DNA of 64,000 nucleotides, from the NCBI GenBank assembly GCA_030670545.1, contig DAOVBM010000001.1, positions 17,932 to 81,931 on the forward strand. The letters are read 5' to 3'. The notes beneath the pieces were generated by a model. It worked only from the letters and a program-made list of their open reading frames with translations. It was not told the origin of the DNA and made no database searches. The first letter of the stretch is position 1, and every line of letters starts with the position of its first letter. Made by a program: the position numbers and the translations under genes. The DNA comes from Candidatus Woesearchaeota archaeon. GTDB taxonomy: Archaea; Nanobdellota; Nanobdellia; Woesearchaeales; JAGLGH01. Shown piece after piece: positions 152-63,950 of the stretch.

Positions 152-1327
152 TCAATACTTCTTCTTTTTCCAGATAAATAGTGCAAGAGCTGAGAATAGC
201 AATATAGCCTGAAGAAATGTAAACCCAAGTGGAACTATGAACACCGGAACTTCAACACGAGGAGGCCTTGGAATGCCTATTGGAATTGGGACCTCTCTTA
301 TCTCTTCTTCAACCTCTATAGGCTTTTCTTCTTCAATCTCTTCAGGCGGAATCTTCTTTTCCACTGGCGGCAACTCTTTTACAGGGATATATATAGGCTC
401 TCTTTCTTTAGGAACAATCGTATAAACCACATACAATGGGCCTCCACCACCTCTTGCAGCAACTGTAGATACACTGAATATTGTAGTTGCTGTATTGCTG
501 CTGCCTGTTGTGTCATTCGCAAACACGCTTATAATATAATCTCCAAGTTCAGTAAGATTATCAGGTCCAAAGATGAAATCAATGGATTGGTTTGTCAATT
601 GCTGCAATAGTGTGCCGTTTGGGTCTGTGACATTAGCGATAACTGAATCAAGGAAGTAGTCAGATGCATTGAAATCTATCCTGACACTTTCATTGCCAAA
701 AAGCAGTTCAGTATCATTTATTGATATGTTGATTGCTGGTGCTGTTGTGTCAGCGACATCAAATGAATCATTCTCTATATTGAACCTGCCTAATGTGTCG
801 TTTGCAAATACACTGATATTATAGATTCCTAATGATGTAAGGTTTTCCGGGCCAAGCTCTAATGTGACATTTGCATTTATTTGATTGAATAGTAAGGTTC
901 CATTGGGATAAATGATTGTGGAATTGGCAAAGTCAAGGGATGGGTCTGTTATAGTGATATTGATCAATACATATTCGTATCCAAATTCAGGAGCAGTATC
1001 ATTTATTGATATGTCCTTTGTCGGAGGAAGCGTATCATTCACATTGAAGTATGCTATTGATGTGTTTGTATTTCCTGATGTGTCATTCGCAAACACTGTT
1101 ATATTATATCTTCCTAACTCTGTGAGATTAGCTGGTACTAAGATTATATTCTGGCTTTGATCTGTGAACTGTCCCAAGAGTGTACCATTAGGATACGTGA
1201 CATTAGCAATTACTGAATCAATAAATTGATCAGATGCATTGAAATCAATGCTTACAGATTCAATGCCATATTCTGCTTCTGTGTCATTGACTGAGATATT
1301 TATGGTAGGAGAGATTGTATCATTCAC
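152..1327 (-). CDS. C-terminal continuation of the giant surface protein in another frame. It carries three more ~95-aa repeats, a Pro/Glu/Lys-rich stalk, a C-terminal TM helix (PLGFTFLQAILLFSALALFIW) and a KKKKY tail. It is either separated from the upstream ORF by a 7-nt frameshift or is a separately initiated small protein.
   Basis: Translation continues the repeat consensus exactly (YFNVNDTISPTINISVNDTEAEYGIESVSIDFNASDQF). Relative to neighbouring repeat copies, a 7-nt segment (atgctat/GCATATT) is missing at about 1325-1330. Confidence 0.7.
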   Translation of the reverse strand: MNDTISPTINISVNDTEAEYGIESVSIDFNASDQFIDSVIANVTYPNGTLLGQFTDQSQNIILVPANLTELGRYNITVFANDTSGNTNTSIAYFNVNDTLPPTKDISINDTAPEFGYEYVLINITITDPSLDFANSTIIYPNGTLLFNQINANVTLELGPENLTSLGIYNISVFANDTLGRFNIENDSFDVADTTAPAINISINDTELLFGNESVRIDFNASDYFLDSVIANVTDPNGTLLQQLTNQSIDFIFGPDNLTELGDYIISVFANDTTGSSNTATTIFSVSTVAARGGGGPLYVVYTIVPKEREPIYIPVKELPPVEKKIPPEEIEEEKPIEVEEEIREVPIPIGIPRPPRVEVPVFIVPLGFTFLQAILLFSALALFIWKKKKY

Positions 1328-4300
1328 ATTGAAGTTGAGGTGTTTGTATTTCCTGATGTGTCATTCGCAAACACTGTTATGTTGTATCTCCCAAGCGCTG
1401 TAAGATTGGCTGGCACTAAGATTATATCCTGGCTTTGATCTGTGAACTGCCCTAATAGTGTTCCATTTGGATATGTCACATTAGCAATAACTGAATCAAG
1501 ACCAACATTTGATACATTAAAGTCTATTTGTATAGACTCAACTCCATACTCCACGTCTGTGTCATTGAGTGATATATTGATAGTAGGCGCGATTGTATCA
1601 TTCACATTGAAGTATGCTGTTGAGGTGTTTATATTTCCTGATGTGTCATTCGCAAACACTGTTATGTTGTATCTTCCAATTGCTGTCAGGTTAGCTGGGA
1701 CTAATAGGAAATCAACAGATTGATTTGTCAACTGCTGCAGCAATGTTCCATTTGGATATGTTACATTAGCTATTACTGAATCCAGTAATCCATTAGATGC
1801 ATTGAAATCTATTTGTATAGACTCAACTCCATACTCCACATCTGTATCATTCACTGATATATTGATAATAGGCGCGATTGTATCATTTACATTGAAGTAT
1901 GATGTCGATGTGTTTGTGTTCCCTGCTGTATCATTCGCAAACACTGTTATGTTGTATCTTCCAATTGCTGTCAGGTTGGCAGGCACAAAGATAAAATCAA
2001 TTGACTGGTCGGTCAATTCCTGAAGCAAAGTGCCGTTAGGATATGTCACATTCGTTATAACTGAATCAAGGTTAGGATCTGATGCATTGAAATCTATGCT
2101 CACAGACTCAACACTATACTCTACATCTGTACCATTCACAGATATATTGATTGTCGGAGAATCTACATCCACCACTGTCCCTGTCACATAGGCATTGTCA
2201 ATCTGGCAGATTTCATTATTGCTGCTTGACAAGCACCTGAACCTTATCTTAAGATCATGATTATTGTCTGCATTGCTTGTGAGATTATAACTGTAAAGGG
2301 TATAATCTGTAATATCTTCGATACTAAGCACATTTATCCAGGCTGTGCCATTGTACCAGTCAGCTGCAATATATTCGCCTGCATCAAGCCTTTCAGTATT
2401 TGCATAGAAGCTGAAACTTATGTTAATATATCCCCATGTGCTGATATTTGTCTCAACTATGCTTTCTCCTACTGTGTTCTCTGCTTCAGCATTATATATG
2501 CCGGCAAAAGGGCTTGTACTTGCAATGAACCATGCAACTCCAGCTCCACTTGTTGTCCAGTTGTTTGTTGAGAGATTGCCTGATTCAAAATCCTCAAAGA
2601 ATGTGCCATTTCCTTCACTAAGCGCAGGGTCTCCAGGGCTGAAAGTATAATTCGCATAATCAGAAGATTTTATATTGAACCAAGGCCGCCATACTCCCAA
2701 ACAAGTGTAATTCGATAGGTTGTAGGTTCCGTCGCACTTGAAGAATATCTGATTCTCTGTGCTTACAGGCTTTTTCTCAATTACAAGACTATCGTAATTC
2801 AATCCAGATGGATCAATTATGGAGTGCGCAAGGCTTGCATTGTATCCCCCCATTATGGTGTCTGTCATGTTCGTGTTGTTGAATAATCCCCTTATCCAAT
2901 AATTGTCAATAGTCGGATCATACATAGCAGTCACCTGCATGTCATATTCTTCTGTGCCTGAGAAATTAAAATCATATGACTCATTTGAAGAATATACAAG
3001 ATGGCCTGTTGAGTTGTATATCATGAATGATGCATTAAGGAAATTTCCATCCCCATCTACAAGAGTGCCGTTTAATGTGTAATTTGCAAGAGGGATTATA
3101 TCATAAGTCCACTGCTCGCTGGTGTACCATGTGCTGTTTGTATCATTTGCATAGCTTCTCCATATATAGCTGCCTGGCTGGATGTTTGTGTAGTTGTAAT
3201 AGAACTCCTGACTCTCATTGCCTGTTGCTGAATAGTTCTGCAATGTTCCAGTGAAGTTATGCTCGAAATAGACAGTATCTGCAGTCAGGTTCCAGCTTAT
3301 ATTGAACTGGTAGCTATTGTCTGGTATGTAATATACTATTCCTGAAGGATATGTCCTGTTGTCATACCATTTAAACACAAAGACATCAAAACCTGATGCA
3401 GATATATTTGCATTTCCAAAAGTGTCATTCGCAAATACTGTTATATTGTATCTTCCGACTGCTGTAAGGTTAGCAGGAGCAAAGATGAAATCAACAGACT
3501 GGTTGGTCAATTCCTGAAGCAGAGTGCCGTTAGGATATGTCACATTTGCTATAACTGAATCAAGATCAAGGTCTGATGCATTAAAATCTATGCTCACAGA
3601 TTCCACTCCAGATTGAAGATAAGAATCATTTATAGATATGTTTATTTCAGGAGGCTCTGCCTCAATTGTGATTGTAAAGTTATTATCATCCCAGCCTGAA
3701 TTGCCAAGCGAATCATAAGCAAGACAGTTCCAGATATAGCTTCCGTCAGCTATTCCTGTTAAGGAGAATGTGCTGGAATTTGACAATCCTGATACTGTAT
3801 CAGTTTCATTTGCCGCAAAGCTGCCGCTGATATTATGATATAATGTTATGTTGGTAAGAGCAGCCATGTTCTCTGTTGCATTGCATATAAACTCTACTGA
3901 GCTGTTTAATATGGTAGTTGCATTTGGCGGAGAGGAAAGTATCACCCCAGGAGCAAGATTGTCGATTGATATTGTCCTGTTATCTGAGTAGCCAGTAATA
4001 TTGTTAGCGTCAGTGCATTCAATATGCCATAGGAAGGTCTCATTCTGCCTGTCAGTAAGATTGATGTAATTTGTTCCGTTTGTGACTACAGATGACTGGT
4101 TTGATACATTGAAAGTGGAGTTCAGGTACACGAGGCAGCTGTATATCTCATTGCTGAGGTCGCTGGCATTGAAGCTGAATGTTATATTGCCGTTATATGT
4201 GCCGTTTACTGGAGCTATCAACGTTATGTCAGGAGGTGTTGTATCTGAAGTATTGATTGTGTTTATGAAAACATTTGCACCCTCATAATACTCTTTTGAG

Positions 4301-7300
4301 CAGAGAATCTGAGGTGAGTACTGCCCAGTCTGGTTAAAGTTGATAACTACCTGATAAACTGAAACATTAGTTTCATCCATATCATAAGTTCCCATACCAG
4401 GTATGTCCACATCGCAGTTTGCTCCGGATATTGATATATTTGTATCTGTATCTGTGTAATTTGCAGTTATCAGTACAGAATCCCCCAGTTCAATAGTTGA
4501 GGTATTCTCCTCTCCTACCACCTTTGTCGGATGATTAATAACAGTAACAGTTCTGGATATAGTATCTAATCTCTGATAATTTTCCTTTGAGCAGTTGAAA
4601 GTATGCGTTTTAGCGCCAAGGATAGTCCAGTTGAAATTTTTTGAATAATTCCCATCTTCTACAGGCAGGTCAGGAAGGATAGATGAAGGGCTGCCTGATA
4701 TTGAGCAGTTCGCTCCAAGAATAGGATTGTCATCCTCATCTGTATAATATGCCCAGATTATGTAATTGTTGTTAGGCGCAGGCCCTGCATATATTGTTGC
4801 ATTGGCGCTTACGCTGAGGTTTGCAGGCTCCACATTTATCTCAACATCTGATGAGTTTACTGGAACTCCGTAGCTTATGCTGTCATACGGCGTGACTTCG
4901 CAGAGCCACTGATCTCCAATCGAGGTGTTTTGGTATGAGACTGTTGCGCCTGTAAATGAAGTAAGAGTATCATTTCTATACCATGCAATTGTGCTTTGGT
5001 CTGGGTCTCCTTCAGTATCATTATATGTGTAATTGCATGTCATGTTATTCAGAGTGCTGACATTTGCTCCGTCATAAGTCGGGCTTATTGTGACATTCGT
5101 GACATTCGGCGCTGTCTGTGTCCTTACATAGAATGTCACATCCTTCTCGTCTATATTATTTGATGTGTCATTGATCCACATTGTGATGTTGTTCCATGCA
5201 GATTCTATTGCGGTGAAATTCACGTAAAGGCTGCTGCAGTCGGATATTGATGTATTTGTTGCATTATTGTTAAGATTATACCAGCACTTGTCAGGATAAT
5301 CTTCTGTATATGTCCAGTTCAGTGTGAGGTTCAGGCTGTAATATGTTGAATTGTTTATAGGATATGTTATGTTCAGGACAGGGTCTATGTTATCCTGCAC
5401 AGTGATCTGGATTGCAGTGGAGTTGATGTTGTTGGATGTATCATTTACAGATATGTTCAGGTAATATATTACTGGAGTCAGTGTTGTTGCGTTTGTTATC
5501 AGGCCAGATGAAGAGTTTATTGCAAAATTATTTGTGTCATTTATAAAATATTTATCCACAAGATAGTTGTCGCTTGCATTCACGTCATAGCTGAAAGACT
5601 CGTTGTATTCAGTTACCTGGTTTTGCGGAGTCTGGTCCCATGTCGGAGCAGTTGTATCATTCACATTAAAGAAAGATGTCGAGGTATTTGTATTGCTGGA
5701 TGTGTCATTCGCAAGCACAGTTATGTTGTATCTGCCAAGCAAGGTTAAGTTGGCTGGAACCAGAATTATATCTTCGCTTTGGTTTGTGAACTGCCCCAAT
5801 AATGTGCCATTCGGATACGTGACATTGGCGGTTGTTGAGTCAAGGAATTGGTCAGATGCATTGAAATCTATGCTTACAGACTCTATTCCATACTCTACCT
5901 CTGTGTCATTGACAGAAATATTGATTGTCGGCGCTATTGTATCATTGACATTGAAGTATGATGTTGTTGTATTGCTAAAGCCTGCTGTGTCATTAGCAAA
6001 CACGGTGATGTTGTATCTTCCAAGCGCTGTCAGGTTTGCGGGTTCAAATTCAAAATCAATTGACTGGTTTGTAAGCTGCTGGAGCAGGGTGCCATTAGGG
6101 TAAGTAACATTAGCGATGACAGAATCCAGGCATGTGTCAGAGGCATTGAAATCGATGTTTACAGATTCTACCCCATACTCTACATCTGTGTCATTCACTG
6201 AGATGTTTATTGTCGGCGTTATTGTATCATTCACATAGAAGAATGATGCTGTTGTGTTCGTGTTGCCGGATGTGTCGTTCGCAAATACTGTGATGTTATA
6301 TCTTCCAAGCGCTGTTAGGTTGGCAGACTCAAATTCAAAGTCAACAGACTGGTTTGTAAGCTGCTGGAGCAGTGTGCCATTTGGATAAGTCACATTTGCG
6401 ATGACTGAATCAAGGAATTGGTCAGAAGCATTGAAATCTATGCTTACAGACTCAGCACAATATTCTATTTCTGTATTATTCACTGATATGTTTATTGTTG
6501 GCAACGTATTGTCTATTGTAAAATTAGTGCTGCTGTTAGAGCATAGGTCACCATCATCACAACCTTCAACATAAATCATCCAATCGCCATCAGGCACTGT
6601 ACTTGAATTAAATAGCTGATTGGTCAATGAAGTGCTTGTGTTTATTGTCTGGTTGAAACTATCATCTGAATTGAATAATGAGACATTATAAGTGACAGGA
6701 TCGCCATTAGGGTCTGAAAACGCTGACCATGTTATATTTATTATTCCACTTTCATGATCCCCTTGCGCAGGATTGGTTATCTCATTAGTTATTGGAGCTA
6801 CGTTGACTGACACGATATCTAATTGAGACAATTCAAACCCATTAAGGCTTTCATCAAACTGCTCTACAGTTTCGCCAGAAGCAACTTCCAGCCACAGATT
6901 GAAAGTGTAACTATTTCCGACTGTTAAGTTTTTACATACCATGTAGATAAAAGCATTGCCTATATCTAAATCAGAACTGAGGTACCTTTCTTTCTTGGAA
7001 TAGCAAAGTGATTCCGGAACATCTGATGAGTTTATGAAATAAATCGGTGTCTGGTTTCCTGATGCTGTCCCGAATGATGAGCTCATAGAGATAAAATATT
7101 GTGTCCCATTCTGTATTGTAACTGTCTTATTCACAAGATTATGCAGCCCTGCTGAATAATTTTGGGATGAAGTCAAGTTTGTCAAAGGATTTGAGACTTG
7201 AAAATTATCAATTAGATTAAGATTATTATCTTTCAGATCAAATTCAGCCAATGCAAAATCAACTGTTACTGTCCCTGCGCTTGTTTTAGACTGGATAGTA

Positions 7301-8900
7301 TGGTTGTGAGTCCCTACATCACCAGTTTCTATATAAACCCCTGATACTGAACCTATATCCGAGGGGCTGGAAAGATATCTTCTCCAGAAGGGGGAAATTT
7401 CATTGGTACCTAAATCTTCAAAGTAATAATCTACTGTTGCTGAAGATGCATTTCCCTGGACAGTCTGTTTGGTCATAAAATATGTTGGGGCTGCATATGA
7501 TTTTGTGATTGTCCAATTAAAAGCAGGAACAAAAGATGCAGAGGAATGATTATAACTATCATTTGTCAGTTGTATCCTCACTAACTCTCCCATTGTAGTC
7601 TCGAACTTCCCAAGAAGCATATCAATATCATTTACATCTATTGAGCCGTTGCCAGTTCTCTTAAATTCTATTGTAATATTATGTTCTCCTGAACTCACAT
7701 TAATAAGGAAAGGTTTTGTGCCAGTAGAGCCTTCATCGTCAATATCTTCAACTGTTCTCAATTTCTCCTCTAATTTCGCAATATTATCTACCTTAATCCT
7801 CACCCATACATCATTAGCTCCAAGGCCTGTTAGTTTCTTGATATTCATTGAAGAAAAGAAACTTAAATTTACACTAGGTCTTGATGTGTTGAACAGCTTA
7901 AGCACGCCAATCACATAATCTGAGCTTGCAAAAGAGAAATTTGTAGTATCAAAATCAACTCCAAAGATGGAAGTATTGCCTCTGACATAAAAGTATGTCT
8001 CTTCTGTATCATTGATATTATTTGATGTATCATTGGCAGTAAATGTCATATTATACCTGCCAAGCAGGAAAGGCGCTGTGAAGGAATTATTGTACTTGTC
8101 TCCTGCTGCATTGCTCAGTTCAACCAATTCACTTGTTCCGTTCGGATAAGTGATATTGGCGCTTACATTAGCCACTGCAAAAAAATCAGTGACATTAGCA
8201 GCTATCTCTATTATATCAGAAACATTGAAGTGTGAGTCTGCTGTTGGAATAAGGTCAAATACTGAAGGTCGCGTAGTATCATTCACATAAAAGAATGATG
8301 CTGTCGTGTTTGTGTTTCCAGATGTATCATTGGCAAACACGGTGATGTTATATCTTCCAAGCGCAGTGAGATTCGCAGACTCAAATACAAAGTCAATTGC
8401 CTGATCTGTCAACTGCTGCAACAAGATGCCATTAGGATAAGTTACATTGGCCATCACTAAATCAATACCTACATTTGATGCGTTAAAGTCTATTAACACA
8501 GACTCAATACCATACTCTACTTCTGTATCATTCACTGAGATATTTATTGTTGGCGGAACAGTATCATTCACATTGAAGTATGCTGTTGATGTATTCACAT
8601 TGTTGGATGTATCATTGGCAAATACTGTAATGTTATATCTTCCAAGAAGTGTAAGGTTTGCTGGAACAAGGATTATATCTTCGCTTTGATTTGTGAACTG
8701 CCCTAATAGTGTTCCGTTCGGATACGTGACATTTGCTATCACTGAATCAAGGAACTGGTCAGATGCATTGAAATCTATGCTTACAGATTCAATTCCATAC
8801 TCTGCATCTGTGTCATTTACTGATATGTTTATCAAAGGATATACTGTATCTGTTGAATTGACAATATCCAAAGTATCGCTTGCAGTTTGGTAATACTCTT
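400..8900 (-). repeat. Intragenic tandem array of ~285-bp (~95-aa) repeats inside the giant surface-protein gene. Several copies are more than 85% identical at the nucleotide level.
   Basis: Recurrent strings such as gtgtcattcgcaaacactgttatgttgtatcttcc and ctggctttgatctgtgaactgcc appear at 1065, 1340, 1625, 1925, 3425, 5705, 6000, 6290, 8330 and 8620. Confidence 0.85.
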
Positions 8901-11900
8901 TTGAGCACGAGACAAATGGAGTGAATTCGCCAGGCTGTGTGAACTGCACAATGACTTCGTAAGTGATTGCTCCTGTCTCGGTCATATCAAAAGTGCCATA
9001 TCCTGCCAGGCTGACATTACAAGCAGCTCCTGTGAGAAGGGCGCTTGTATTTGCATCAGTGTAATTTGCTGTGAAATTCACATGGCTGCCGTATCCTATA
9101 TCAGTTGCGTTCTGCCCCCCCTCAAGATTAGTTGGATGGTTCAATACAGTCACTGTCCTTATGAGCGTATTTTGAGTCTGGTAATTTGTCTTTGAGCATA
9201 TGAAAGTATGGGTCTTTGGCCCTGTGACTGACGACTGGTAATTATGTGTATAGTTGCCATCATTATCACCATCAGAAAGAGTGACATCCGGAGTGCCATC
9301 TGTAGAACAACTAGCACCTAGTATAGCATTATCATCCTCATCTGTGTAATATGCCCAGATAGTGTAATAGTTATTTGGCTCAGGCCCCACATATATTGTG
9401 GCATTATCGCTTACAGTTATATTTGTCCTTTCTGTGCCAATCTCAGCATATGATGAATTTATTGGTGATCCATAGATTATACCATCATAAGGCGTGACTT
9501 CGCAGATCCACTGCTCTGCAAGTGAAGTATTCTGGTACTGGACAGTTGCGCCAGTAAATGAAGTTAAGACATTATTTTTATACCATGCAATTGTGCTTTG
9601 GTCAGGATCACCCTGCGTATCATTGTACGTGTAATTGCAGTGCATGTCATTCAGCGTGCTTACATAGATGCTGTTATATTTGGGCGTGATTGTGACATTT
9701 GTGATATTCGGAGCTGTCTGTGCCATGGCATAGAATGTTACATTATCTTGATTCATATTATTTGATGTGTCATTGATCCACATTGTTATGTTATTCCATG
9801 CAGAATCTATCGCAGTGAAATTAGCGTAAAGGTCACTGCAGTCAGCTATTGTTGTATTTGTCGCATTATTATTCAGATTGTACCAGCACTTGTTAGGATA
9901 GTCTTCTGTGAATGTCCAGTTCAGTGTGAGATTGAGTTCATAATAAGTAGAGCCATTTACAGGGTATGTTATGTTGATTGTTGGAGCGAGTGTATCAACA
10001 CTAAAATTTCGCGTCTCGCTTGTGTTTGCATTAGTTGCATCATCCCAGCAAGTTACATTCCAGCTATGGCTGCCATCTGCGAATCCCTGAACATCATGCG
10101 AAACTGCACTCCCATTAGGGCTATAATAATCAGACATGTTTACTATGCCATCAATTGTCAGATTACATAATAAGATAGTATCTATATTATCAGTAGCTGT
10201 CCAATTAAAGTAAACTACTGTCTCATTTGTGGTATAATCATTGTCTGGAGAATTTAATTCTATTGAGGGTTTTGTTTTATCTACTGTAAAAGTTCGCTGG
10301 TTGCTCGCAGCTGTTTCTGCAGGGTCTATACATTCAACCTTCCATGTTTGATTTGTTCCCTCAGCAATTCCACTGACTTCAAAAGTAGTATTTATGCTTT
10401 CGTTTGTAGAACTATTTGTCTGGTTTAAAATATCGTTGATATATAAAGAACAATTTAGGTTATCATGGGCAGGGTCAACAACATAAAAAGTGAAGTTTAT
10501 ATCTCCATCTTTATCTGCATAATTATTTTCTGGCGAGACAAGGTACACCAATGGAGGCACTATAGTTATTGTTATGGGAGTTGAATTGACAGAATTCCCA
10601 TCATCATCTGTTGCCTGAACAGTTATGGTATAATCACCAATATCTAAGGCAGGAGAGATACTAAGATTAGTGGAAGAGCCATTAGTAACAGTTCCGTTCT
10701 GCCCATTTGCTGTATCATTGACGAAGATGGTATAATTTATATCAGGAGTTGTATCGTCTGTTAGTACAAAAGTAATTAGAGGGCTTGGGTCAGATATATT
10801 TAAACCAGATGAAGGGTAAGTTATCTGCGCAGTTGGAAGTCCTGCAGTGATTGTGAAATTCCTGGTTTCAGAAATATTTGAATTATCTTCTGTATCTGTG
10901 CAGTTTATGAACCATGAATGGTTGCCAATAGATAATCCTGGGACTGTGAATAATGTAGTGGTATCGCTGCTGGTAGATTCATTTGTCTGATTCAGGACAT
11001 CATCAATATAGATTGAACAATTGAGTGGCGCTGAGATATCTACAGCCTTAAATGTAAAATCAATATCTGTTGGACCTGTTGTATAATTATCACTTGGACC
11101 AAGCAGGGTTATTTGAGGCAGTTCATTATCGATAATTAATGAAGCGCTTGGGAATTTTACATAAGAGTATTCAGTATTTTCCCATTGGATGTATGCAAAT
11201 TTGGCAGCAGCACCAGTTATATTAACGCAAAACTGAACACCTACTCGCTCACCAGAGCTTAGATTAAGATCATCACTGTAAGGCACATTATCACCCCAGT
11301 TATTGAAATCAGCTGCAGCGCATATATTTGAGGTTGCAGTAGTTGTGTTGAATGGATTGTATTCTGTTCCATTATATTTTAATATTTTAGCAAAAAGAAA
11401 TGCATCTGGGTTAGATGCTGAGCAATCGCCAAAAATGGAGAAGTTCCAGGTTCCATTAACTATTGTTTGTGTTGTCCAGTTTGGGGCAATCCATTTTTCA
11501 GGAAAGCATACAACACCCGGAACACTCAGGTCAAGGGGGGCAGAAGTATAACCAGTTATCCCAACGCTTTCATTCTTCATTTGATGATAAGCAGGATATT
11601 GGGAATCAGAAGCATTAAAAAGATAGTAGGTACTTTCATTTACTTCACCAAAAGCAGGATCATCCGGAGTCAATTCAAATGTGTATTCTTGTCCTGGAAC
11701 TAATCCTGTCTTAAACAGATTCCATTCACCATAGCATTCCTGCTCACTAAAGTTCCATTCCCTGCATTTATACAATGTTGTTCCTTTTGCAATCACAGTG
11801 ACATTTGCTGTTGTGAAATTCATTGCAGTCGGGTCAATAGCATAAGCCTGGACATAACTGCCCAGCTCTTCATGTTCAGATATGTTCAATTCCTCCATTT

Positions 11901-12957
11901 TTATGAATTCTTCAACATCCGAGTCTGAGATATAATCTTCTATAGTGATATTTTTGATGATATGATTTACTGGCTTGATGATGACCTTATGCTTTCCTGC
12001 ATGGAGATTTACTGCAGTCCTGTTTTTCACTTTCGTTGCTTTAAATTGATTATCCTTGTCTGCCTGTCCCCCCTCTAAGCTTATGCTCTCTTCAATATTT
12101 CCTGATGTATCATAAAATTCAATATGCGCTTCTATATCATTACCTGCTGCATCTTTTATTGTAGCATTGAATGTTATATTCATGCCTGTGATGTTTAAAG
12201 CAGCAAACTCACTCAAATTAAAGATTACTGATCTATCCTCCTGAACTGCATCAGAATCAACTATAAAGGATAGATGAAGTTTAAGGATATGGACATACAG
12301 GCCTGCAACATCATCTTCCTGGATAAGCAGCAATTCTGAAATGGGTTTCATTAGCGTAGGAAGCAGGAATTTAATAGCAGCCTTATCACTGTAATATATT
12401 TCTGAATATATATCTGTATGATCTAGGCTGTAATCGACATAAAGCAGTCTTGCAGAAATGCTATTGTTCTTAGCTATTCCATATTTACTTTCAAAAATAT
12501 ATACGTCATTATCCCATTTATCATTGGAAGGCGCAAAGTCAATAAATTCACAGCATTTTGCTGAGCCATGGCAGAATGATGTTGTGATTTCATTATCAAA
12601 AGAATAAATCTCCCAGACAGAGCAGAGGTTGGAATAGTTAAGGCGGGGTATGACAATGCTGTCATTGATAGAAAATCCAATAACCCCTGCTCTTTCCAGA
12701 TCTGAGAGATTCGAAAGAATATGAAGATCTATTTGAAGTTCAGGATCAGTATTTTTATCAGAAAATGTGAAGCAAGCAAAGCATATAAGTATAATAATGC
12801 AGCATATAAGAAATAATAAATTCTTTAAATCAATCTTAGAATCCCTGAATGCTATAAGCTTATAAATCTTATAGCTATAATTATGTTTGCTGCATAATTT
12901 TAAATGCATTGTCATGGCCTGCCTATAATAAAGTTTTATCGCCTTAAACGTATACAT
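1324..12957 (-). CDS. Giant secreted/surface repeat protein, 3877 aa. It has an N-terminal hydrophobic anchor/signal, about 25 tandem ~95-aa beta-rich repeats (consensus ...TINISVNDTEVEYGIESVSIDFNASDQFLDSVIANVTYPNGTLLQQLTNQS...LGRYNITVFANDTSGNTNT...), and a ~440-aa module duplicated internally. N-x-S/T sequons are extremely dense, which fits a heavily N-glycosylated archaeal cell-surface or adhesin-like protein.
   Basis: Single uninterrupted ORF of 11.6 kb. The N-terminal residues 47-63 (LLFLICCIIILICFACF) are hydrophobic. The repeat periodicity is visible at both the protein and nucleotide level. Confidence 0.85.
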   Translation of the reverse strand: MYTFKAIKLYYRQAMTMHLKLCSKHNYSYKIYKLIAFRDSKIDLKNLLFLICCIIILICFACFTFSDKNTDPELQIDLHILSNLSDLERAGVIGFSINDSIVIPRLNYSNLCSVWEIYSFDNEITTSFCHGSAKCCEFIDFAPSNDKWDNDVYIFESKYGIAKNNSISARLLYVDYSLDHTDIYSEIYYSDKAAIKFLLPTLMKPISELLLIQEDDVAGLYVHILKLHLSFIVDSDAVQEDRSVIFNLSEFAALNITGMNITFNATIKDAAGNDIEAHIEFYDTSGNIEESISLEGGQADKDNQFKATKVKNRTAVNLHAGKHKVIIKPVNHIIKNITIEDYISDSDVEEFIKMEELNISEHEELGSYVQAYAIDPTAMNFTTANVTVIAKGTTLYKCREWNFSEQECYGEWNLFKTGLVPGQEYTFELTPDDPAFGEVNESTYYLFNASDSQYPAYHQMKNESVGITGYTSAPLDLSVPGVVCFPEKWIAPNWTTQTIVNGTWNFSIFGDCSASNPDAFLFAKILKYNGTEYNPFNTTTATSNICAAADFNNWGDNVPYSDDLNLSSGERVGVQFCVNITGAAAKFAYIQWENTEYSYVKFPSASLIIDNELPQITLLGPSDNYTTGPTDIDFTFKAVDISAPLNCSIYIDDVLNQTNESTSSDTTTLFTVPGLSIGNHSWFINCTDTEDNSNISETRNFTITAGLPTAQITYPSSGLNISDPSPLITFVLTDDTTPDINYTIFVNDTANGQNGTVTNGSSTNLSISPALDIGDYTITVQATDDDGNSVNSTPITITIVPPLVYLVSPENNYADKDGDINFTFYVVDPAHDNLNCSLYINDILNQTNSSTNESINTTFEVSGIAEGTNQTWKVECIDPAETAASNQRTFTVDKTKPSIELNSPDNDYTTNETVVYFNWTATDNIDTILLCNLTIDGIVNMSDYYSPNGSAVSHDVQGFADGSHSWNVTCWDDATNANTSETRNFSVDTLAPTINITYPVNGSTYYELNLTLNWTFTEDYPNKCWYNLNNNATNTTIADCSDLYANFTAIDSAWNNITMWINDTSNNMNQDNVTFYAMAQTAPNITNVTITPKYNSIYVSTLNDMHCNYTYNDTQGDPDQSTIAWYKNNVLTSFTGATVQYQNTSLAEQWICEVTPYDGIIYGSPINSSYAEIGTERTNITVSDNATIYVGPEPNNYYTIWAYYTDEDDNAILGASCSTDGTPDVTLSDGDNDGNYTHNYQSSVTGPKTHTFICSKTNYQTQNTLIRTVTVLNHPTNLEGGQNATDIGYGSHVNFTANYTDANTSALLTGAACNVSLAGYGTFDMTETGAITYEVIVQFTQPGEFTPFVSCSKEYYQTASDTLDIVNSTDTVYPLINISVNDTDAEYGIESVSIDFNASDQFLDSVIANVTYPNGTLLGQFTNQSEDIILVPANLTLLGRYNITVFANDTSNNVNTSTAYFNVNDTVPPTINISVNDTEVEYGIESVLIDFNASNVGIDLVMANVTYPNGILLQQLTDQAIDFVFESANLTALGRYNITVFANDTSGNTNTTASFFYVNDTTRPSVFDLIPTADSHFNVSDIIEIAANVTDFFAVANVSANITYPNGTSELVELSNAAGDKYNNSFTAPFLLGRYNMTFTANDTSNNINDTEETYFYVRGNTSIFGVDFDTTNFSFASSDYVIGVLKLFNTSRPSVNLSFFSSMNIKKLTGLGANDVWVRIKVDNIAKLEEKLRTVEDIDDEGSTGTKPFLINVSSGEHNITIEFKRTGNGSIDVNDIDMLLGKFETTMGELVRIQLTNDSYNHSSASFVPAFNWTITKSYAAPTYFMTKQTVQGNASSATVDYYFEDLGTNEISPFWRRYLSSPSDIGSVSGVYIETGDVGTHNHTIQSKTSAGTVTVDFALAEFDLKDNNLNLIDNFQVSNPLTNLTSSQNYSAGLHNLVNKTVTIQNGTQYFISMSSSFGTASGNQTPIYFINSSDVPESLCYSKKERYLSSDLDIGNAFIYMVCKNLTVGNSYTFNLWLEVASGETVEQFDESLNGFELSQLDIVSVNVAPITNEITNPAQGDHESGIINITWSAFSDPNGDPVTYNVSLFNSDDSFNQTINTSTSLTNQLFNSSTVPDGDWMIYVEGCDDGDLCSNSSTNFTIDNTLPTINISVNNTEIEYCAESVSIDFNASDQFLDSVIANVTYPNGTLLQQLTNQSVDFEFESANLTALGRYNITVFANDTSGNTNTTASFFYVNDTITPTINISVNDTDVEYGVESVNIDFNASDTCLDSVIANVTYPNGTLLQQLTNQSIDFEFEPANLTALGRYNITVFANDTAGFSNTTTSYFNVNDTIAPTINISVNDTEVEYGIESVSIDFNASDQFLDSTTANVTYPNGTLLGQFTNQSEDIILVPANLTLLGRYNITVLANDTSSNTNTSTSFFNVNDTTAPTWDQTPQNQVTEYNESFSYDVNASDNYLVDKYFINDTNNFAINSSSGLITNATTLTPVIYYLNISVNDTSNNINSTAIQITVQDNIDPVLNITYPINNSTYYSLNLTLNWTYTEDYPDKCWYNLNNNATNTSISDCSSLYVNFTAIESAWNNITMWINDTSNNIDEKDVTFYVRTQTAPNVTNVTISPTYDGANVSTLNNMTCNYTYNDTEGDPDQSTIAWYRNDTLTSFTGATVSYQNTSIGDQWLCEVTPYDSISYGVPVNSSDVEINVEPANLSVSANATIYAGPAPNNNYIIWAYYTDEDDNPILGANCSISGSPSSILPDLPVEDGNYSKNFNWTILGAKTHTFNCSKENYQRLDTISRTVTVINHPTKVVGEENTSTIELGDSVLITANYTDTDTNISISGANCDVDIPGMGTYDMDETNVSVYQVVINFNQTGQYSPQILCSKEYYEGANVFINTINTSDTTPPDITLIAPVNGTYNGNITFSFNASDLSNEIYSCLVYLNSTFNVSNQSSVVTNGTNYINLTDRQNETFLWHIECTDANNITGYSDNRTISIDNLAPGVILSSPPNATTILNSSVEFICNATENMAALTNITLYHNISGSFAANETDTVSGLSNSSTFSLTGIADGSYIWNCLAYDSLGNSGWDDNNFTITIEAEPPEINISINDSYLQSGVESVSIDFNASDLDLDSVIANVTYPNGTLLQELTNQSVDFIFAPANLTAVGRYNITVFANDTFGNANISASGFDVFVFKWYDNRTYPSGIVYYIPDNSYQFNISWNLTADTVYFEHNFTGTLQNYSATGNESQEFYYNYTNIQPGSYIWRSYANDTNSTWYTSEQWTYDIIPLANYTLNGTLVDGDGNFLNASFMIYNSTGHLVYSSNESYDFNFSGTEEYDMQVTAMYDPTIDNYWIRGLFNNTNMTDTIMGGYNASLAHSIIDPSGLNYDSLVIEKKPVSTENQIFFKCDGTYNLSNYTCLGVWRPWFNIKSSDYANYTFSPGDPALSEGNGTFFEDFESGNLSTNNWTTSGAGVAWFIASTSPFAGIYNAEAENTVGESIVETNISTWGYINISFSFYANTERLDAGEYIAADWYNGTAWINVLSIEDITDYTLYSYNLTSNADNNHDLKIRFRCLSSSNNEICQIDNAYVTGTVVDVDSPTINISVNGTDVEYSVESVSIDFNASDPNLDSVITNVTYPNGTLLQELTDQSIDFIFVPANLTAIGRYNITVFANDTAGNTNTSTSYFNVNDTIAPIINISVNDTDVEYGVESIQIDFNASNGLLDSVIANVTYPNGTLLQQLTNQSVDFLLVPANLTAIGRYNITVFANDTSGNINTSTAYFNVNDTIAPTINISLNDTDVEYGVESIQIDFNVSNVGLDSVIANVTYPNGTLLGQFTDQSQDIILVPANLTALGRYNITVFANDTSGNTNTSTSM

Positions 12958-13532: not shown

Positions 13533-13645
13533 TAGCATCATAAAGTCAAAATTCCTTCTATAACCCCTCCAGCTCGTCGCGGGGGGTTGTCCCTTACGGG
13601 GACGCAGAGCTTGCGTTAACCCTTTGAGAATTTTGAAGATGCTAA
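13533..13645. repeat. R1 MITE-like element copy. It has a degenerate 5' end, a GC-rich hairpin core (gctcgtcgcggggggttgtcccttacggggacgcagagc) and the ttttgaagatgct arm.
   Basis: Alignment with the copies at 19872-20040 and 60435-60610. It overlaps the last codons of the gene at 13616..14464. Confidence 0.65.
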
Positions 13646-16816: not shown

Positions 16817-17833
16817 GTGGGGCATATGACTCCAGAACAGGCAGCAAAAGTAAAAGAACTTGCTGAAACACTAAAGAACAGCGGACTTGCTGCAAGCACA
16901 TTGCAGGCAGTTGAAAGAGCAAAGGATATTATTGGGATTCCTGATGAGAATAATGAGCTTCTTGAAAAAGAGCTTGGCTTGAAAAAAGAAGAAGCAAAGG
17001 AAATAGAGAAGCAGATTGAAGATCTCAAGGAAGAGCCAGATCCAGAAGCAGCTGGACAAGTGCAGAAATGGGAAGAAGAGTTGAAAGAAGATGTTGGAGA
17101 GTTGGAAGAGCAGAAAGAGAATATAGATACAGTTGAGGAAACTGCTGCAGAAGAAACTGAAAGCGAAGAAGATACAACCGAAGCAGAAGAAGAGACAGAA
17201 GAGACAGAAGAGACTGAAGAGACTGAAGAACAACCCGAGGAAGAAGATACAACAGAAACTGAGGAAGAAACTGAAGAGGAAGTAGAAGAACAGCCTCAGG
17301 AAGAAGATACAACCGAAACAGAAGAAGAGACTGAAGAGGAAGTAGAAGAACAGCCCGAGGAAGAAGATACAACCGAAACAGAGGAAGAAACAGAAGAGGA
17401 AGTAGAAGAGCAGCCTCAGGAAGAAGATACAACCGAAACAGAGGATGAGACTGAAGAGGAAGTAGAAGAACAACCAGAGGAAGAAGATACAACCGAAACA
17501 GAAGAAGAGAGAGAAGAGGAAGTAGAAGAACGACCAGATGAAGAAGAAACACCTGCTGCACAAGAAGAATTAGATGAGTATGAGAGAGAATTCCAAAAAG
17601 CTGAAGAAGGAACAAGAGAAATGGCAGAAGAGTTAGAAGAAACACAGCAAGAGGAAACTGAACAACAAGATGCGCCTAAAGAAAACAACAATGAAATCAT
17701 GACAAATTCTGATAAAATATTAAATCAGACTGAAGAGAATAGTCAGAATTATGACATATCCAATGATGTAAGGACTGTTGATGAGATATTTGCAGAACTA
17801 GATACCTCTGTCAGGAAAGATGAACCGCAGTAA
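16817..17833 (+). CDS. Highly acidic Glu/Thr-rich repeat protein of unknown function. The N-terminal ~90 aa are helical and the centre is a low-complexity E/T/D array.
   Basis: A strong Shine-Dalgarno (taggaggtgggg) lies 5 nt upstream of the ATG. There are five tandem 60-bp units. Confidence 0.6.
   Translation: MGHMTPEQAAKVKELAETLKNSGLAASTLQAVERAKDIIGIPDENNELLEKELGLKKEEAKEIEKQIEDLKEEPDPEAAGQVQKWEEELKEDVGELEEQKENIDTVEETAAEETESEEDTTEAEEETEETEETEETEEQPEEEDTTETEEETEEEVEEQPQEEDTTETEEETEEEVEEQPEEEDTTETEEETEEEVEEQPQEEDTTETEDETEEEVEEQPEEEDTTETEEEREEEVEERPDEEETPAAQEELDEYEREFQKAEEGTREMAEELEETQQEETEQQDAPKENNNEIMTNSDKILNQTEENSQNYDISNDVRTVDEIFAELDTSVRKDEPQ
17225..17530 (+). repeat. Five tandem 60-bp units encoding EEDTTETEEETEEEVEEQP(Q/E).
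   Basis: Near-identical 60-nt periodicity. Confidence 0.85.
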
Positions 17834-19809: not shown

Positions 19810-19871
19810 TTGGAATCAGCTATTATGATTTTATTTTCATACTTTAATAATCTTTGCATTGAATATATCTA

Positions 19872-20040
19872 TCTAGTCTATTATTTAAGGAGCACCAGCA
19901 TCATCACGTCAAAACTCCTTCAATTTTTGAAGTCTTGCTCGTCGCGGGGGGATGCCCCCTGCGGGGACGCAGAGCCGTCTAAAAATACTTCCTGAGTTTT
20001 GAAGATGCTCGTGCTCCTTTATATCTGACTAAATACTTAC
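19872..20040. repeat. R1 MITE-like element copy with the aggagcaccagcatc arm, the core hairpin gctcgtcgcggggggatgccccctgcggggacgcagagc, the arm gaagatgctcgtgctcc, and the 3' TIR gactaaatacttacc.
   Basis: Alignment with 60435-60610. Confidence 0.75.
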
Positions 20041-20047
20041 CATTGAA

Positions 20048-23096: not shown

Positions 23097-23253
23097 ATTG
23101 ATAAGAATAATATACTAATATTTAAGCTTTATCATTATACTGATATAATTTGTACTAAAACTATATCATTATACTGATATAGCCCAGAGATGATAAAAAG
23201 ATAATCTTGGTATCAATTATCCTTTGAAATCCTTTAATTTATAAAAATATACC

Positions 23254-23690
23254 CCGCTGCTTGCAGTGGCTGGGTATGGCTAATGATTATATGCATGGTA
23301 TATTTTTATGACCAAAAACCCAATGTAAGATTATACCCCCCTCTTGCGACGATTGGATTTTTGATTTATCTTCAATTGCTTTGTTCAGGTTTTTGATACT
23401 TAGTATACCCCCAGTCTGCGACTGGTGGATTATATTGTGGTATACTAAGCCCCAAAATTAGCAACCCTATCCTGAAAGGCGAGCATGCCACCAGTCTATG
23501 ACTGGTGGTGGTTGCTAATTTTTGACATAGTCAAATCCTATTCCATCAACCTAAAGGTTGGGGTATTTACGGATTTGACATTATTCTTGGTCAAATTTTT
23601 GGGATTAAAAATTTCGCACTAAAGTGCTAGGTATTTAAACTCCATTAGAAAATTCCACTATGCGAAATTTTCAATAAGCCTACATTCAAG
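23254..23690. repeat. R2 modular structured repeat. It has three decaying ~75-bp hairpin units, the twin-palindrome module I (23393-23527), module B, and module A in inverted orientation.
   Basis: Modules align to 59596-59895 and 36265-36420. Confidence 0.7.
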
Positions 23691-59093: not shown

Positions 59094-59595
59094 CTTATTC
59101 GCCTCCGATAAATCTATTTTTGATATCCCTATCTTTGAAGTACAAGAAGGAGCACATTATCACATATCAGGCCTGAGATTATTCAGTACTAACTATTTTT
59201 CCTTAATTTAATGCAAGTGATAAATATGATCTTAATACCCCTTCTATATAACCAGAACTAGTAACTTTTAACTTCAATTAGCTTGATATTCCCTATTTTA
59301 CCCAATTACTTCCCAAATCAAGCGTATTTAGTCAATCTAACGTGAATAATGAATTTAATATTAAAGTTCTGTCCTGGTTATCCTTCTTTATTGAAATATG
59401 AATATTATTAAGGTTTGTTGCCCGTTTCACTAACTCCCATGTTCCTTGCTTGGATTTGCCGTAAACTCCCATGAGTACTCTCGTGACGGGCTGTGTTATA
59501 CAAGAGTGTCTTAAAATCACAGCTAAAACACGAGTTTTAAGCTCATTTAAGGACCCATTTGTATAGCTAAAGTAAATGTGTTGAGATATTTAAAT

Positions 59596-59895
59596 GTTTT
59601 TATTATCGAAAATTTCGTAAGAAATTTTATTGGGGTTTAATACCCCTCACTTCAGTGCGAAATTTTGGATTCCAAAAATTTGATACTTAGTATACCACCA
59701 GTCTGCGACTGGTGGATTATATTGTGGTATACTAAGTCCCAAAATTAGCAACCCGAGCCTGAAAGGCGAGCATGCCACCAGTCTATGACTGGTGGTGGTT
59801 GCTAATTTTTGACAATCTATAATGCAAATCCTATCCCCACCATAAATTTGGGGATATTACAGATTTGCTATCAATAAATTGTCAAATTTTTATTA
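59596..59895. repeat. R2 copy with all modules: A, the twin-palindrome insert I (59685-59815), and B.
   Basis: See 23254-23690 and 36265-36420. Confidence 0.8.
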
Positions 59896-59905
59896 TTAAC
59901 ATTAT

Positions 59906-60184
59906 TCATCCGATAGCTCTTCTCACATCAGTAATCTCAACTGAGCCAACTTCATCAAATTCACTGATGCTTTTCTCAAGTTCTTCTGTAGACCCTAAGC
60001 TTTCATCCATGACAAAGATTATCTGCAGTGCTTTCAGGCCGAAAGCTATAGGCTGCTGCTCTACTATCATTTCTCCTTCGCCTGCAAATTGTACAATGAG
60101 TTTCTTTGCCTTTGTCTCAATCTCTTCAAGATTGACATCAACTCCCTTAGGCATTAACTTTAATGTGATTATTACTTGCGCCAT
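59906..60184 (-). CDS. ef1b: Translation elongation factor aEF-1 beta.
   Basis: MAQVIITLKLMPKGVDVNL...PIAFGLKAL...SVEITDV family pattern. Confidence 0.85.
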   Translation of the reverse strand: MAQVIITLKLMPKGVDVNLEEIETKAKKLIVQFAGEGEMIVEQQPIAFGLKALQIIFVMDESLGSTEELEKSISEFDEVGSVEITDVRRAIG

Positions 60185-60206
60185 TGTTAATCATACCCCT
60201 TCTGTT

Positions 60207-60377
60207 TCAGTTAGGTCCTGTAAATCCGCATTCATGGCATTTATATTTTGCCGCTATCTCCCTGCAGTTCCTGCATCTTGTTATTGTGCTTTTTCCGCAT
60301 TTAGGGCATTTGAATTGGACTGACCCATCAATATTTAGTATTGTCTTTTTACAGGATGAGCATACATTCTTTTCCAT
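60207..60377 (-). CDS. Small four-CxxC zinc-ribbon protein (56 aa) upstream of aEF-1beta, absent from the ORF track.
   Basis: A ggaggt Shine-Dalgarno lies 9 nt upstream. Translation: MEKNVCSSCKKTILNIDGSVQFKCPKCGKSTITRCRNCREIAAKYKCHECGFTGPN. Confidence 0.6.
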   Translation of the reverse strand: MEKNVCSSCKKTILNIDGSVQFKCPKCGKSTITRCRNCREIAAKYKCHECGFTGPN

Positions 60378-60434
60378 TTTACAAAACCTCCTTCCATTAT
60401 GGTTTTGCGATGGGTTTATAAAAGTTTTGCAAAA

Positions 60435-60610
60435 GGGTAAGTAAAAAGTCTGCTATTCAAGGAGCACCAGCATCATCAGTCAAAACTTAATCTTTTTCCT
60501 TATCCTGCTCGTCGCGGGGGGAAGCCCCATCCGGGGACGCAGAGCCTTCTAATAACTCATCCCAAGTTTTGAAGATGCTTGTGCTCCTTTGCATCTGACT
60601 TTTTACTTAC
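60435..60610. repeat. Best-preserved R1 MITE-like element. TIRs are GGTAAGTAAAAAGTC/GACTTTTTACTTAC, the inner inverted arms are GGAGCACCAGCATC/GATGCTTGTGCTCC, the core is a GC hairpin, and it is flanked by the 7-bp direct repeat GCAAAAG.
   Basis: Read directly from the sequence. Confidence 0.8.
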
Positions 60611-60701
60611 GCAAAAGCTGTTGTAACTATCCTAAAATAGGAACATTTAAATAATAATAAAATTATAAAAAAATCATAATTAACATCAGGGGGGATTAGA
60701 A

Positions 60702-63833: not shown

Positions 63834-63898
63834 GTTTTCATCCCCCTTAGGTTTGATACTATTATAGAATACTAACTTATATATAAACATTTTGGTGA

Positions 63899-63950
63899 AT
63901 AGGTAAGTAAAAAGTCTGCTATTCAAGGAGCACCAGCATTATCAGTCAAT
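63899..63950. repeat. 5' part of another R1 element copy (aggtaagtaaaaagtctgctattcaaggagcaccagcattatcagtcaa).
   Basis: Matches 60436-60485. Confidence 0.6.

Follow-up and report, generated by a model that had tools for sequence, protein, structure and literature searches.

The window, by which we mean the whole 64-kb stretch of DNA analysed here, carries genes for EF-1beta, a DnaG-type primase, Trm1 and ArgRS, an archaeal set. By DnaG similarity the nearest named relatives are Woesearchaeota and Nanoarchaeota, and this similarity places the window in a DPANN lineage that is Woesearchaeota-like. The spacer between EF-1beta and dnaG contains one copy (copy 59) of a repeat, R2; two further copies (copies 36 and 23) are present, and all three are intergenic. 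R2 consists of a palindromic backbone, A-B, which in copies 59 and 23 is accompanied by a shorter segment with twin palindromes, module I (Table 1). The twin palindromes, the three copies and the contrasting A-B and A-I-B junctions were found at the positions given in a preliminary description of this DNA.

No transposase gene was found within the 64-kb window, where a Y1/tnpA probe was also negative, and no recombinase or invertase gene adjoins any of the three copies. Scans of the window with Rfam at the gathering threshold and for tRNA genes gave nothing meaningful, and a permissive Rfam scan of 59300-60700 gave chance-level matches only, with E up to 10.

The EF-1beta/dnaG interval also contains a non-coding block of ~150 nt on the minus strand (59400-59550), nearly unchanged in the relative at 78% in DnaG. 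It folds with two long helices, has no Rfam match and may represent a small RNA or a leader. Six paralogous genes (311-428 aa) stand in tandem at 31715-38908, with copy 36 between two of them; one has a weak DUF6638 match and the other five are without a Pfam match. Elsewhere, a minus-strand ORF of 3877 aa (1324-12957) is made up mostly of 285-nt (95-aa) tandem repeats, and a further repeat array has a 60-nt unit (17105-17638). A separate repeat family of ~190 bp is found at 60420-60615 and 19848-20045, and in incomplete form at 63886-63949 and at 13534-13610. A GC-rich hairpin (GCTCGTCGCGGGGGG...CCGGGGACGCAGAGC) lies between its long terminal inverted repeats (GTAAGTAAAAAGTC...AAGGAGCACCAGCATCATCA / ...GACTTTTTACTTAC), and the family is probably another miniature transposon.

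Table 1. Positions of R2 features in the window
Feature	Position	Strand	Remarks
Left 10-bp direct repeat TTTTTATTAT	59597..59606		Read as target-site duplication; single in L121 vacant site
Composite element, copy 59: A-B (CGAAAATTTCG...TTGTCAAA) carrying module I	59607..59886	+	Absent from L121 and L123 orthologous spacer
TTGAT target pentanucleotide	59680..59684	+	Directly 5' of module I, copy 59
Module I, copy 59	59685..59813	+	129-nt PATE, read as left end fused to right end
Left-end subterminal hairpin CCACCAGTC-TGC-GACTGGTGG	59695..59715	+	Inside outer stem cttagtatacc/ggtatactaag
Right-end subterminal hairpin CATG-CCACCAGTC-TAT-GACTGGTGG	59775..59795	+	Inside outer stem ttagcaacc/ggttgctaa, then tttttgac
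B palindrome core hairpin GCAAATCC...GGATTTGC	59824..59868		Inner ~30 nt inverted relative to copies 36 and 23
Right 10-bp direct repeat TTTTTATTAT	59887..59896		Flanks composite element
A-B element without I, copy 36	36267..36417	+	Flanks TTTTATTTAT (36257-36266) and TTTTTGTTAT (36418-36427)
Module I, second copy	23398..23526	+	~97% identical; 3' of TTGAT 23393-23397; hairpins 23408-23428 and 23488-23508
Older A-B element, copy 23	23527..23673	-	76.5% to copy 36; other arm upstream of I to ~23375
Two possible decayed left-end-like hairpin units	23246..23370		Seen by eye

Module I and its backbone

The palindrome CCACCAGTC-N3-GACTGGTGG occurs four times in the window, three times perfectly and once with a single mismatch (23408-23428), compared to an expectation of 0 matches in shuffled sequence. 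Two palindromes belong to each copy of module I, and the two copies are ~97% identical over 129 nt. Folded as single-stranded DNA, module I reached a predicted -35.6 kcal/mol (z = -8.9) and formed two domains, in each of which an outer stem encloses a 9-bp hairpin; the longer nested stems described earlier are thus real. The sequence of the window leaves a 1-nt ambiguity in the boundary, with 59686-59814 equally compatible. The right boundary after ...TTTGAC is set by near-identical full-length elements at three loci (L164, L166, L172), and module I therefore takes the coordinates given in Table 1, each copy directly 3' of TTGAT. The hairpins lie 10 and 18 nt from the element ends, the termini (ACTTAG.../...TTTGAC) are not inverted repeats, and 129 nt is too short for a transposase gene.

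Copy 36 provides the vacant site for this insertion. Its A and B modules abut directly (tgata/atcta), as described previously, and module I sits at exactly that point in copy 59. The vacant sequence reads TTTGATAATCTA, with its TTGAT at 36340-36344, and the filled sequence of copy 59 reads TTTGAT[A...TTGAC]AATCTA, with no target duplication. TTGAT lies 5' of both copies in the window and of related elements at loci L038 and L089; other subfamilies of the hairpin element have TTTAA or TAAAA as the left flank. A profile search found no module I copies in the window beyond these two. The two decayed hairpin units proposed upstream of copy 23 can be made out by eye, with ~67% identity to the left half of I, but were not detected by the family profile; at most they might be remnants of left-end-like units.

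The boundary drawn earlier between A and B proved to be merely the insertion point of module I. The natural units of the backbone are an A stem-loop and a long B palindrome, AAAAATTTGATAATCTATAATGCAAATCC-core-GGATTTGCTATCAATAAATTGTCAAATTTTT, the left arm of which includes the last 12 nt of what had been called A. Both arms contain TTGAT, and both module I insertions follow a TTGAT inside the backbone arms. Copies 36 and 59 are 97-99% identical in module A. In copy 23 the order is, as reported, module I, then B, then inverted A, and the minus strand at 23672-23512 can be aligned with the A-B element of copy 36 at 76.5%. Identity is ~97% between the two I copies and 76% between their host backbones, which indicates that I moved independently of the backbone and later.

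The preliminary description had also raised the possibility of an invertible segment. This idea did not survive the comparison: copy 23 is a whole A-B in the opposite orientation, with I placed after another TTGAT in the other arm, no invertase gene is present, and only the ~30-nt B core runs in opposite directions in copy 59 and in the two other copies. This inner part is 83% identical when flipped compared to 64% in direct orientation, and an inverted alignment of the core region is 82% complementary. The flipped core is a small inversion and not evidence of a switch. We also noted that, compared with 36355-36399 and 23531-23578, the inverted core is bounded by the 8-bp stem GCAAATCC/GGATTTGC and is more diverged than the flanking element.

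Comparison with close relatives provided a second vacant site. In the orthologous EF-1beta/dnaG spacers of L121 (98% in DnaG) and L123 (78%), the whole 59.6 kb copy is absent, and the vacant site reads AAATG-TTTTTATTAT-TTAACATT, with a single TTTTTATTAT where the window has two. This indicates that A-B is a second mobile element, ~150 bp without I. At copy 23, homology to a 98% relative (L207, position 1405) stops exactly at the backbone terminus, 23673; the L207 sequence diverges completely at this terminus, and no vacant site could be reconstructed for copy 23. Beyond 23673, L207 has a different convergent gene, and the window has a repeat cluster and a gene for an AAA_14/DUF4143 ATPase.

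Like classical MITEs, the backbone is ~150 bp long, gene-less, strongly palindromic and polymorphic between close relatives, and like those that duplicate their target it has a 10-bp direct repeat on either side, of which the vacant site holds one copy. It departs from classical MITEs in its weak terminal inverted repeats (CGAAAATTT... against ...AAATTGTCAAA, ~9/14 positions matching) and in that no parent element was found in the window or among the loci examined. We found only three backbone copies, all in the window and none elsewhere in the loci examined. The 10-mers flanking copy 36 match at only 8/10 positions, although the element is ~98% identical to that of copy 59, which brings in a conserved target or an att-like core repeat as an alternative to a classical target duplication. 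The similarity of the flanking 10-mers between independent backbone copies likewise suggests a strong target preference or a core-type repeat.

The hairpin family and its association with TnpA

We looked for the palindrome, with its 18 fixed bases, in 596 Gb of reference genomes (one per species), where by our estimate ~9 matches would arise by chance, and found it at 119 loci or more. The matches listed are mostly in bins of Woesearchaeota, Aenigmatarchaeota, Nanoarchaeota, Altiarchaeota and Methanosarcinales, often at contig ends. Among the same listed matches, a few fall in GC-rich bacterial contigs without the family flanks and are probably due to chance. Separately, in Armatimonadota and other bacterial bins (L005, L020, L085, L102) the palindrome lies in a repeated element with its own common flanks, agcatgctttagcatgc...ttagtagCCACCAGTCTCGGACTGGTGGaatttgaaaatt, and the hairpin family may extend to bacteria through these. 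A scan of viral contigs gave one locus only, and the element is therefore not viral.

The copies elsewhere are two-hairpin elements of 105-220 bp. They have a defined right end and a short left flank that is conserved, and they do not duplicate the target. Their left unit has an outer stem around a CCAC...GTGG hairpin, and their right unit ends in CATG-hairpin-TT(C/T)TTGAC or in ...TTCTTTAG. One Woesearchaeota genome has more than 20 copies with sharp boundaries and the conserved short left flank; the flanks are otherwise unrelated, which indicates that no target is duplicated. Extra hairpin modules in this genome make its copies mosaic as well. In a Woesearchaeota JAZDHV genome, the left terminus TAAAATGTCAGAATT is tandemly duplicated just before a complete element (L068, L073), and other copies lack the left unit or have extra hairpin modules, giving a mosaic population of variants.

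Across 28 elements, 93.9% of the cells in the predicted helices are paired, and 16 of the 26 pairs have changed on both sides. None of 500 shuffles reached the observed values, and slid controls were 22-48% paired. Compensating changes have preserved the outer stem and inner hairpin on the left and the inner hairpin on the right; the way in which the loci were selected biases the result for the right hairpin, but not for the left helices.

All-against-all clustering of the 492 ORFs within 1.2 kb of palindromes gave no recurrent protein beside the hairpins, and the ORFs upstream of right-end motifs are housekeeping genes. Probing with Y1 transposases gave three cases directly at a hairpin. At L070, AATTCCACCAGTC-TCT-GACTGGTGGAATT is followed by a gene for a 148-aa Y1_Tnp protein (Pfam E = 4e-18) and then by AAAATTCCGCCAGTC-TCT-GACTGGCGGAATTTT. 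L029 belongs to the copy-rich Woesearchaeota genome, and here a Y1_Tnp gene (E = 5e-30) precedes a two-hairpin element by ~90 bp; at L120, tnpA is followed by CATG-CCACCAGTC-TGT-GACTGGTGG-TTCTTGAC. Only two of these loci are among the 119 palindrome matches listed and the third is from the viral-contig scan; most copies of the hairpin element among the palindrome matches listed are orphans. There was no recurrent large ORF adjoining the hairpins that would represent a tnpB or iscB (omega RNA) module, and no Rfam match.

As an independent test, we chose 80 metagenome loci by similarity to the TnpA protein alone. With the hairpin defined as CC[AG]C, a 9-bp stem and a 3-nt loop, 50 of the 51 hairpins in these loci lie within 400 nt of tnpA. 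A profile built from the short gene-less copies was then split into its left-end and right-end halves. The right-end half matches just downstream of tnpA in 50 of the 80 loci and the left-end half upstream of it in 27, with both halves present on the tnpA strand in 18. The right ends at five loci (L153, L164, L166, L170, L172) match the window in the order outer stem, small GC hairpin, CATG, hairpin, outer stem, TTTGAC. The linked genes form compact units of ~700 bp, left end-tnpA-right end, which recur in many contigs and contexts. In long Woesearchaeota variants ~70 nt still match the tnpA 3' end, as would be the case in deletion derivatives.

A probable nested pair of miniature elements

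We favor the reading that R2 is made up of two gene-less mobile elements that are unrelated to each other, with module I, a PATE of the IS200/IS605 family, nested inside the A-B miniature element. We put the probability of this reading at about 0.85. The vacant and filled sites, the element boundaries, the linkage of the hairpin to TnpA and the compensatory conservation of the hairpins support it directly. PATEs were defined in Haloquadratum walsbyi, where they derive from IS200/IS605-type transposons; they have palindromes near their termini, no inverted terminal repeats and no target duplication, are too short for a transposase and are related to IS605-type ends (PMC3119063). The elements described here are likewise short and gene-less, without terminal inverted repeats or target duplication. 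They have near-identical palindromes by both termini and a short conserved oligonucleotide in the 5' flank, share their ends with transposase-carrying elements, point to an origin by deletion of the core and are frequently nested. In contrast to the H. walsbyi elements, with their IS1341/tnpB-type parent, the parent here comes from DPANN archaea and is IS200-like, ~700 bp long and tnpA-only, each hairpin lies inside a second, covarying outer stem, and the sequence of the 9-bp stem hardly varies among several archaeal phyla. To our knowledge, no such outer stems around each hairpin have been described for IS200/IS605 ends. The earlier view of module I as a small hairpin-type mobile insertion is thus borne out by vacant copy 36 and filled copy 59, and can be narrowed to an IS200/IS605-type PATE.

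ISDra2, a member of the same family, inserts 3' of TTGAT (PMC2806898), and TnpA acts on IS608 and ISDra2 as a dimer bound to the top-strand hairpins of the left and right ends (PMC5934647). Module I resembles these elements in having subterminal hairpins at both ends on one strand, in its insertion 3' of a fixed short sequence, the pentanucleotide being identical to that of ISDra2, and in the absence of a duplication, with a right-end cleavage point a few nt past the hairpin (PMC2806898, PMC5934647). Unlike them, it is associated with no tnpB, the window copies are non-autonomous, and its hairpin is a perfect 9-bp stem with a 3-nt loop and not an imperfect palindrome. Inspection by eye of the nucleotides 5' of the hairpins against the flanks and ends gave no convincing rule for guide/cleavage-site pairing of the IS608 type.

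On our reading, module I arose when the left and right ends of an IS200-like insertion sequence became fused after loss of the transposase gene. By analogy with these systems, its hairpins, on the single-stranded top strand, would be the binding sites of a dimeric Y1/HUH transposase, TnpA, acting in trans in this genome. TnpA would excise module I as a single-stranded circle and insert it 3' of TTGAT without target duplication ('peel and paste'). The suggestion in the preliminary description that a dimeric protein binds the twin palindromes would then hold as far as the protein is concerned, since dimeric Y1 TnpA binds end hairpins (PMC5934647), but the sites would be single-stranded hairpins and not a double-stranded operator. 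A-B is a separate miniature element of ~150 bp, composed of a stem-loop unit and a long palindrome and inserting at T-rich sites. The three arrangements represent the backbone alone (copy 36), the backbone with I in its left arm (copy 59), and an older, reversed backbone whose other arm holds I (copy 23).

Rival readings and meaning of the finding

The rival that comes closest, although we consider it quite unlikely, is an archaeal counterpart of REP/BIME sequences, in which REP-like units are spread and maintained by a single-copy domesticated Y1 transposase of the RAYT kind and not by a true insertion sequence. The resemblance to bacterial REP/BIME mosaics and REPINs extends to intergenic palindromic units in variable order and orientation and to the link with a Y1 transposase. 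The palindromic units form mosaics in varying combinations both in the window and in Woesearchaeota, most copies among the palindrome matches listed are orphans, and the tnpA of L029 lies between short gene-less copies (a cut right end upstream and a complete copy downstream) and not between clean ends of its own. Against this, the TnpA genes are found in the recurring ~700 bp left end-tnpA-right end units, as for an active IS200-like insertion sequence, which sets them apart from the transposases that mobilise REPs and REPINs, and a probe with E. coli RayT detected no relative in 880 kb of loci. The units also differ from REP/BIME and REPIN units in that they are not inverted doublets folding as one long hairpin. 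A conserved archaeal RNA, whether a small RNA gene, a cis-regulatory RNA or a terminator, would fit the very stable predicted structure of module I, the covariation behind its helices and the T-runs that follow the hairpins. A DNA hairpin predicts covariation equally, however, and there is no Rfam family at the gathering threshold, with only the chance-level matches (E up to 10) noted above. The element is present or absent from copy to copy and from relative to relative, occurs many times per genome beside unrelated housekeeping genes, and its halves flank a transposase gene; we therefore regard an RNA as very improbable.

Even less probable is that the twin palindromes are double-stranded operators of a dimeric DNA-binding regulator and R2 a regulatory region. 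Operators typically have perfect palindromes of the 9-3-9 form, and the copies lie between genes, but the stem differs in sequence among elements through changes that compensate each other (for example CCACTCGTC/GACGAGTGG and CCACCATTC/GAATGGTGG), which indicates that a structure and not a fixed recognition sequence is preserved. The flanking genes are also unrelated, and the element is dispensable in close relatives. We see almost no chance that the three copies are immobile sequences left to diverge after an ancient segmental duplication. The preliminary description had favored this view in case only these three copies existed and showed no structural heterogeneity, and the backbone does occur in three copies only, all in the window. 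Relatives of module I are nevertheless present in many genomes. The precise vacant site with one flanking 10-mer, in a 98% relative that lacks the 59.6 kb copy, contradicts a duplication, and module I is precisely inserted within otherwise near-identical backbones and is far better conserved between its two copies than are the host backbones.

The reading as nested mobile elements can be extended, although we regard the extension as doubtful. The IS200-like element and its two-hairpin derivatives would form one lineage with an almost invariant hairpin that crosses distant archaeal phyla, and the outer stems might be a structural switch. Such a lineage may include Woesearchaeota, Aenigmatarchaeota, Altiarchaeota, Methanosarcinales and a few bacteria; if true, it could serve as a marker of DNA exchanged between symbionts of the DPANN group and their hosts. 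The switch would use alternative pairings that the outer stems offer among three CCAC/GTGG half-sites, and it might control excision or have been co-opted by the host.

The literature searched contained no paper linking IS200 elements to DPANN groups; searching by sequence string returned primers only, and a search on archaeal miniature elements returned nothing useful. This kind of element is already known, and the present example comes from an archaeal group that has been little studied: module I, a PATE whose IS200-like family is common in DPANN archaea, is lodged inside a lineage-specific miniature element. These findings leave the current understanding of the IS200/IS605 family unchanged. 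For annotation, they mean that such intergenic repeats in DPANN genomes are transposon debris and not regulatory sites or RNA genes, and for assembly and genome comparison the elements account for contig breaks and synteny breakpoints. For experiment, they offer a compact and well-defined combination of a Y1 transposase with a perfect 9-bp hairpin, for which the target is apparently TTGAT. For the biology of the organisms, they indicate that the very small, streamlined genomes of DPANN archaea still carry active-looking single-strand transposons together with their miniature derivatives, nested as in haloarchaea.
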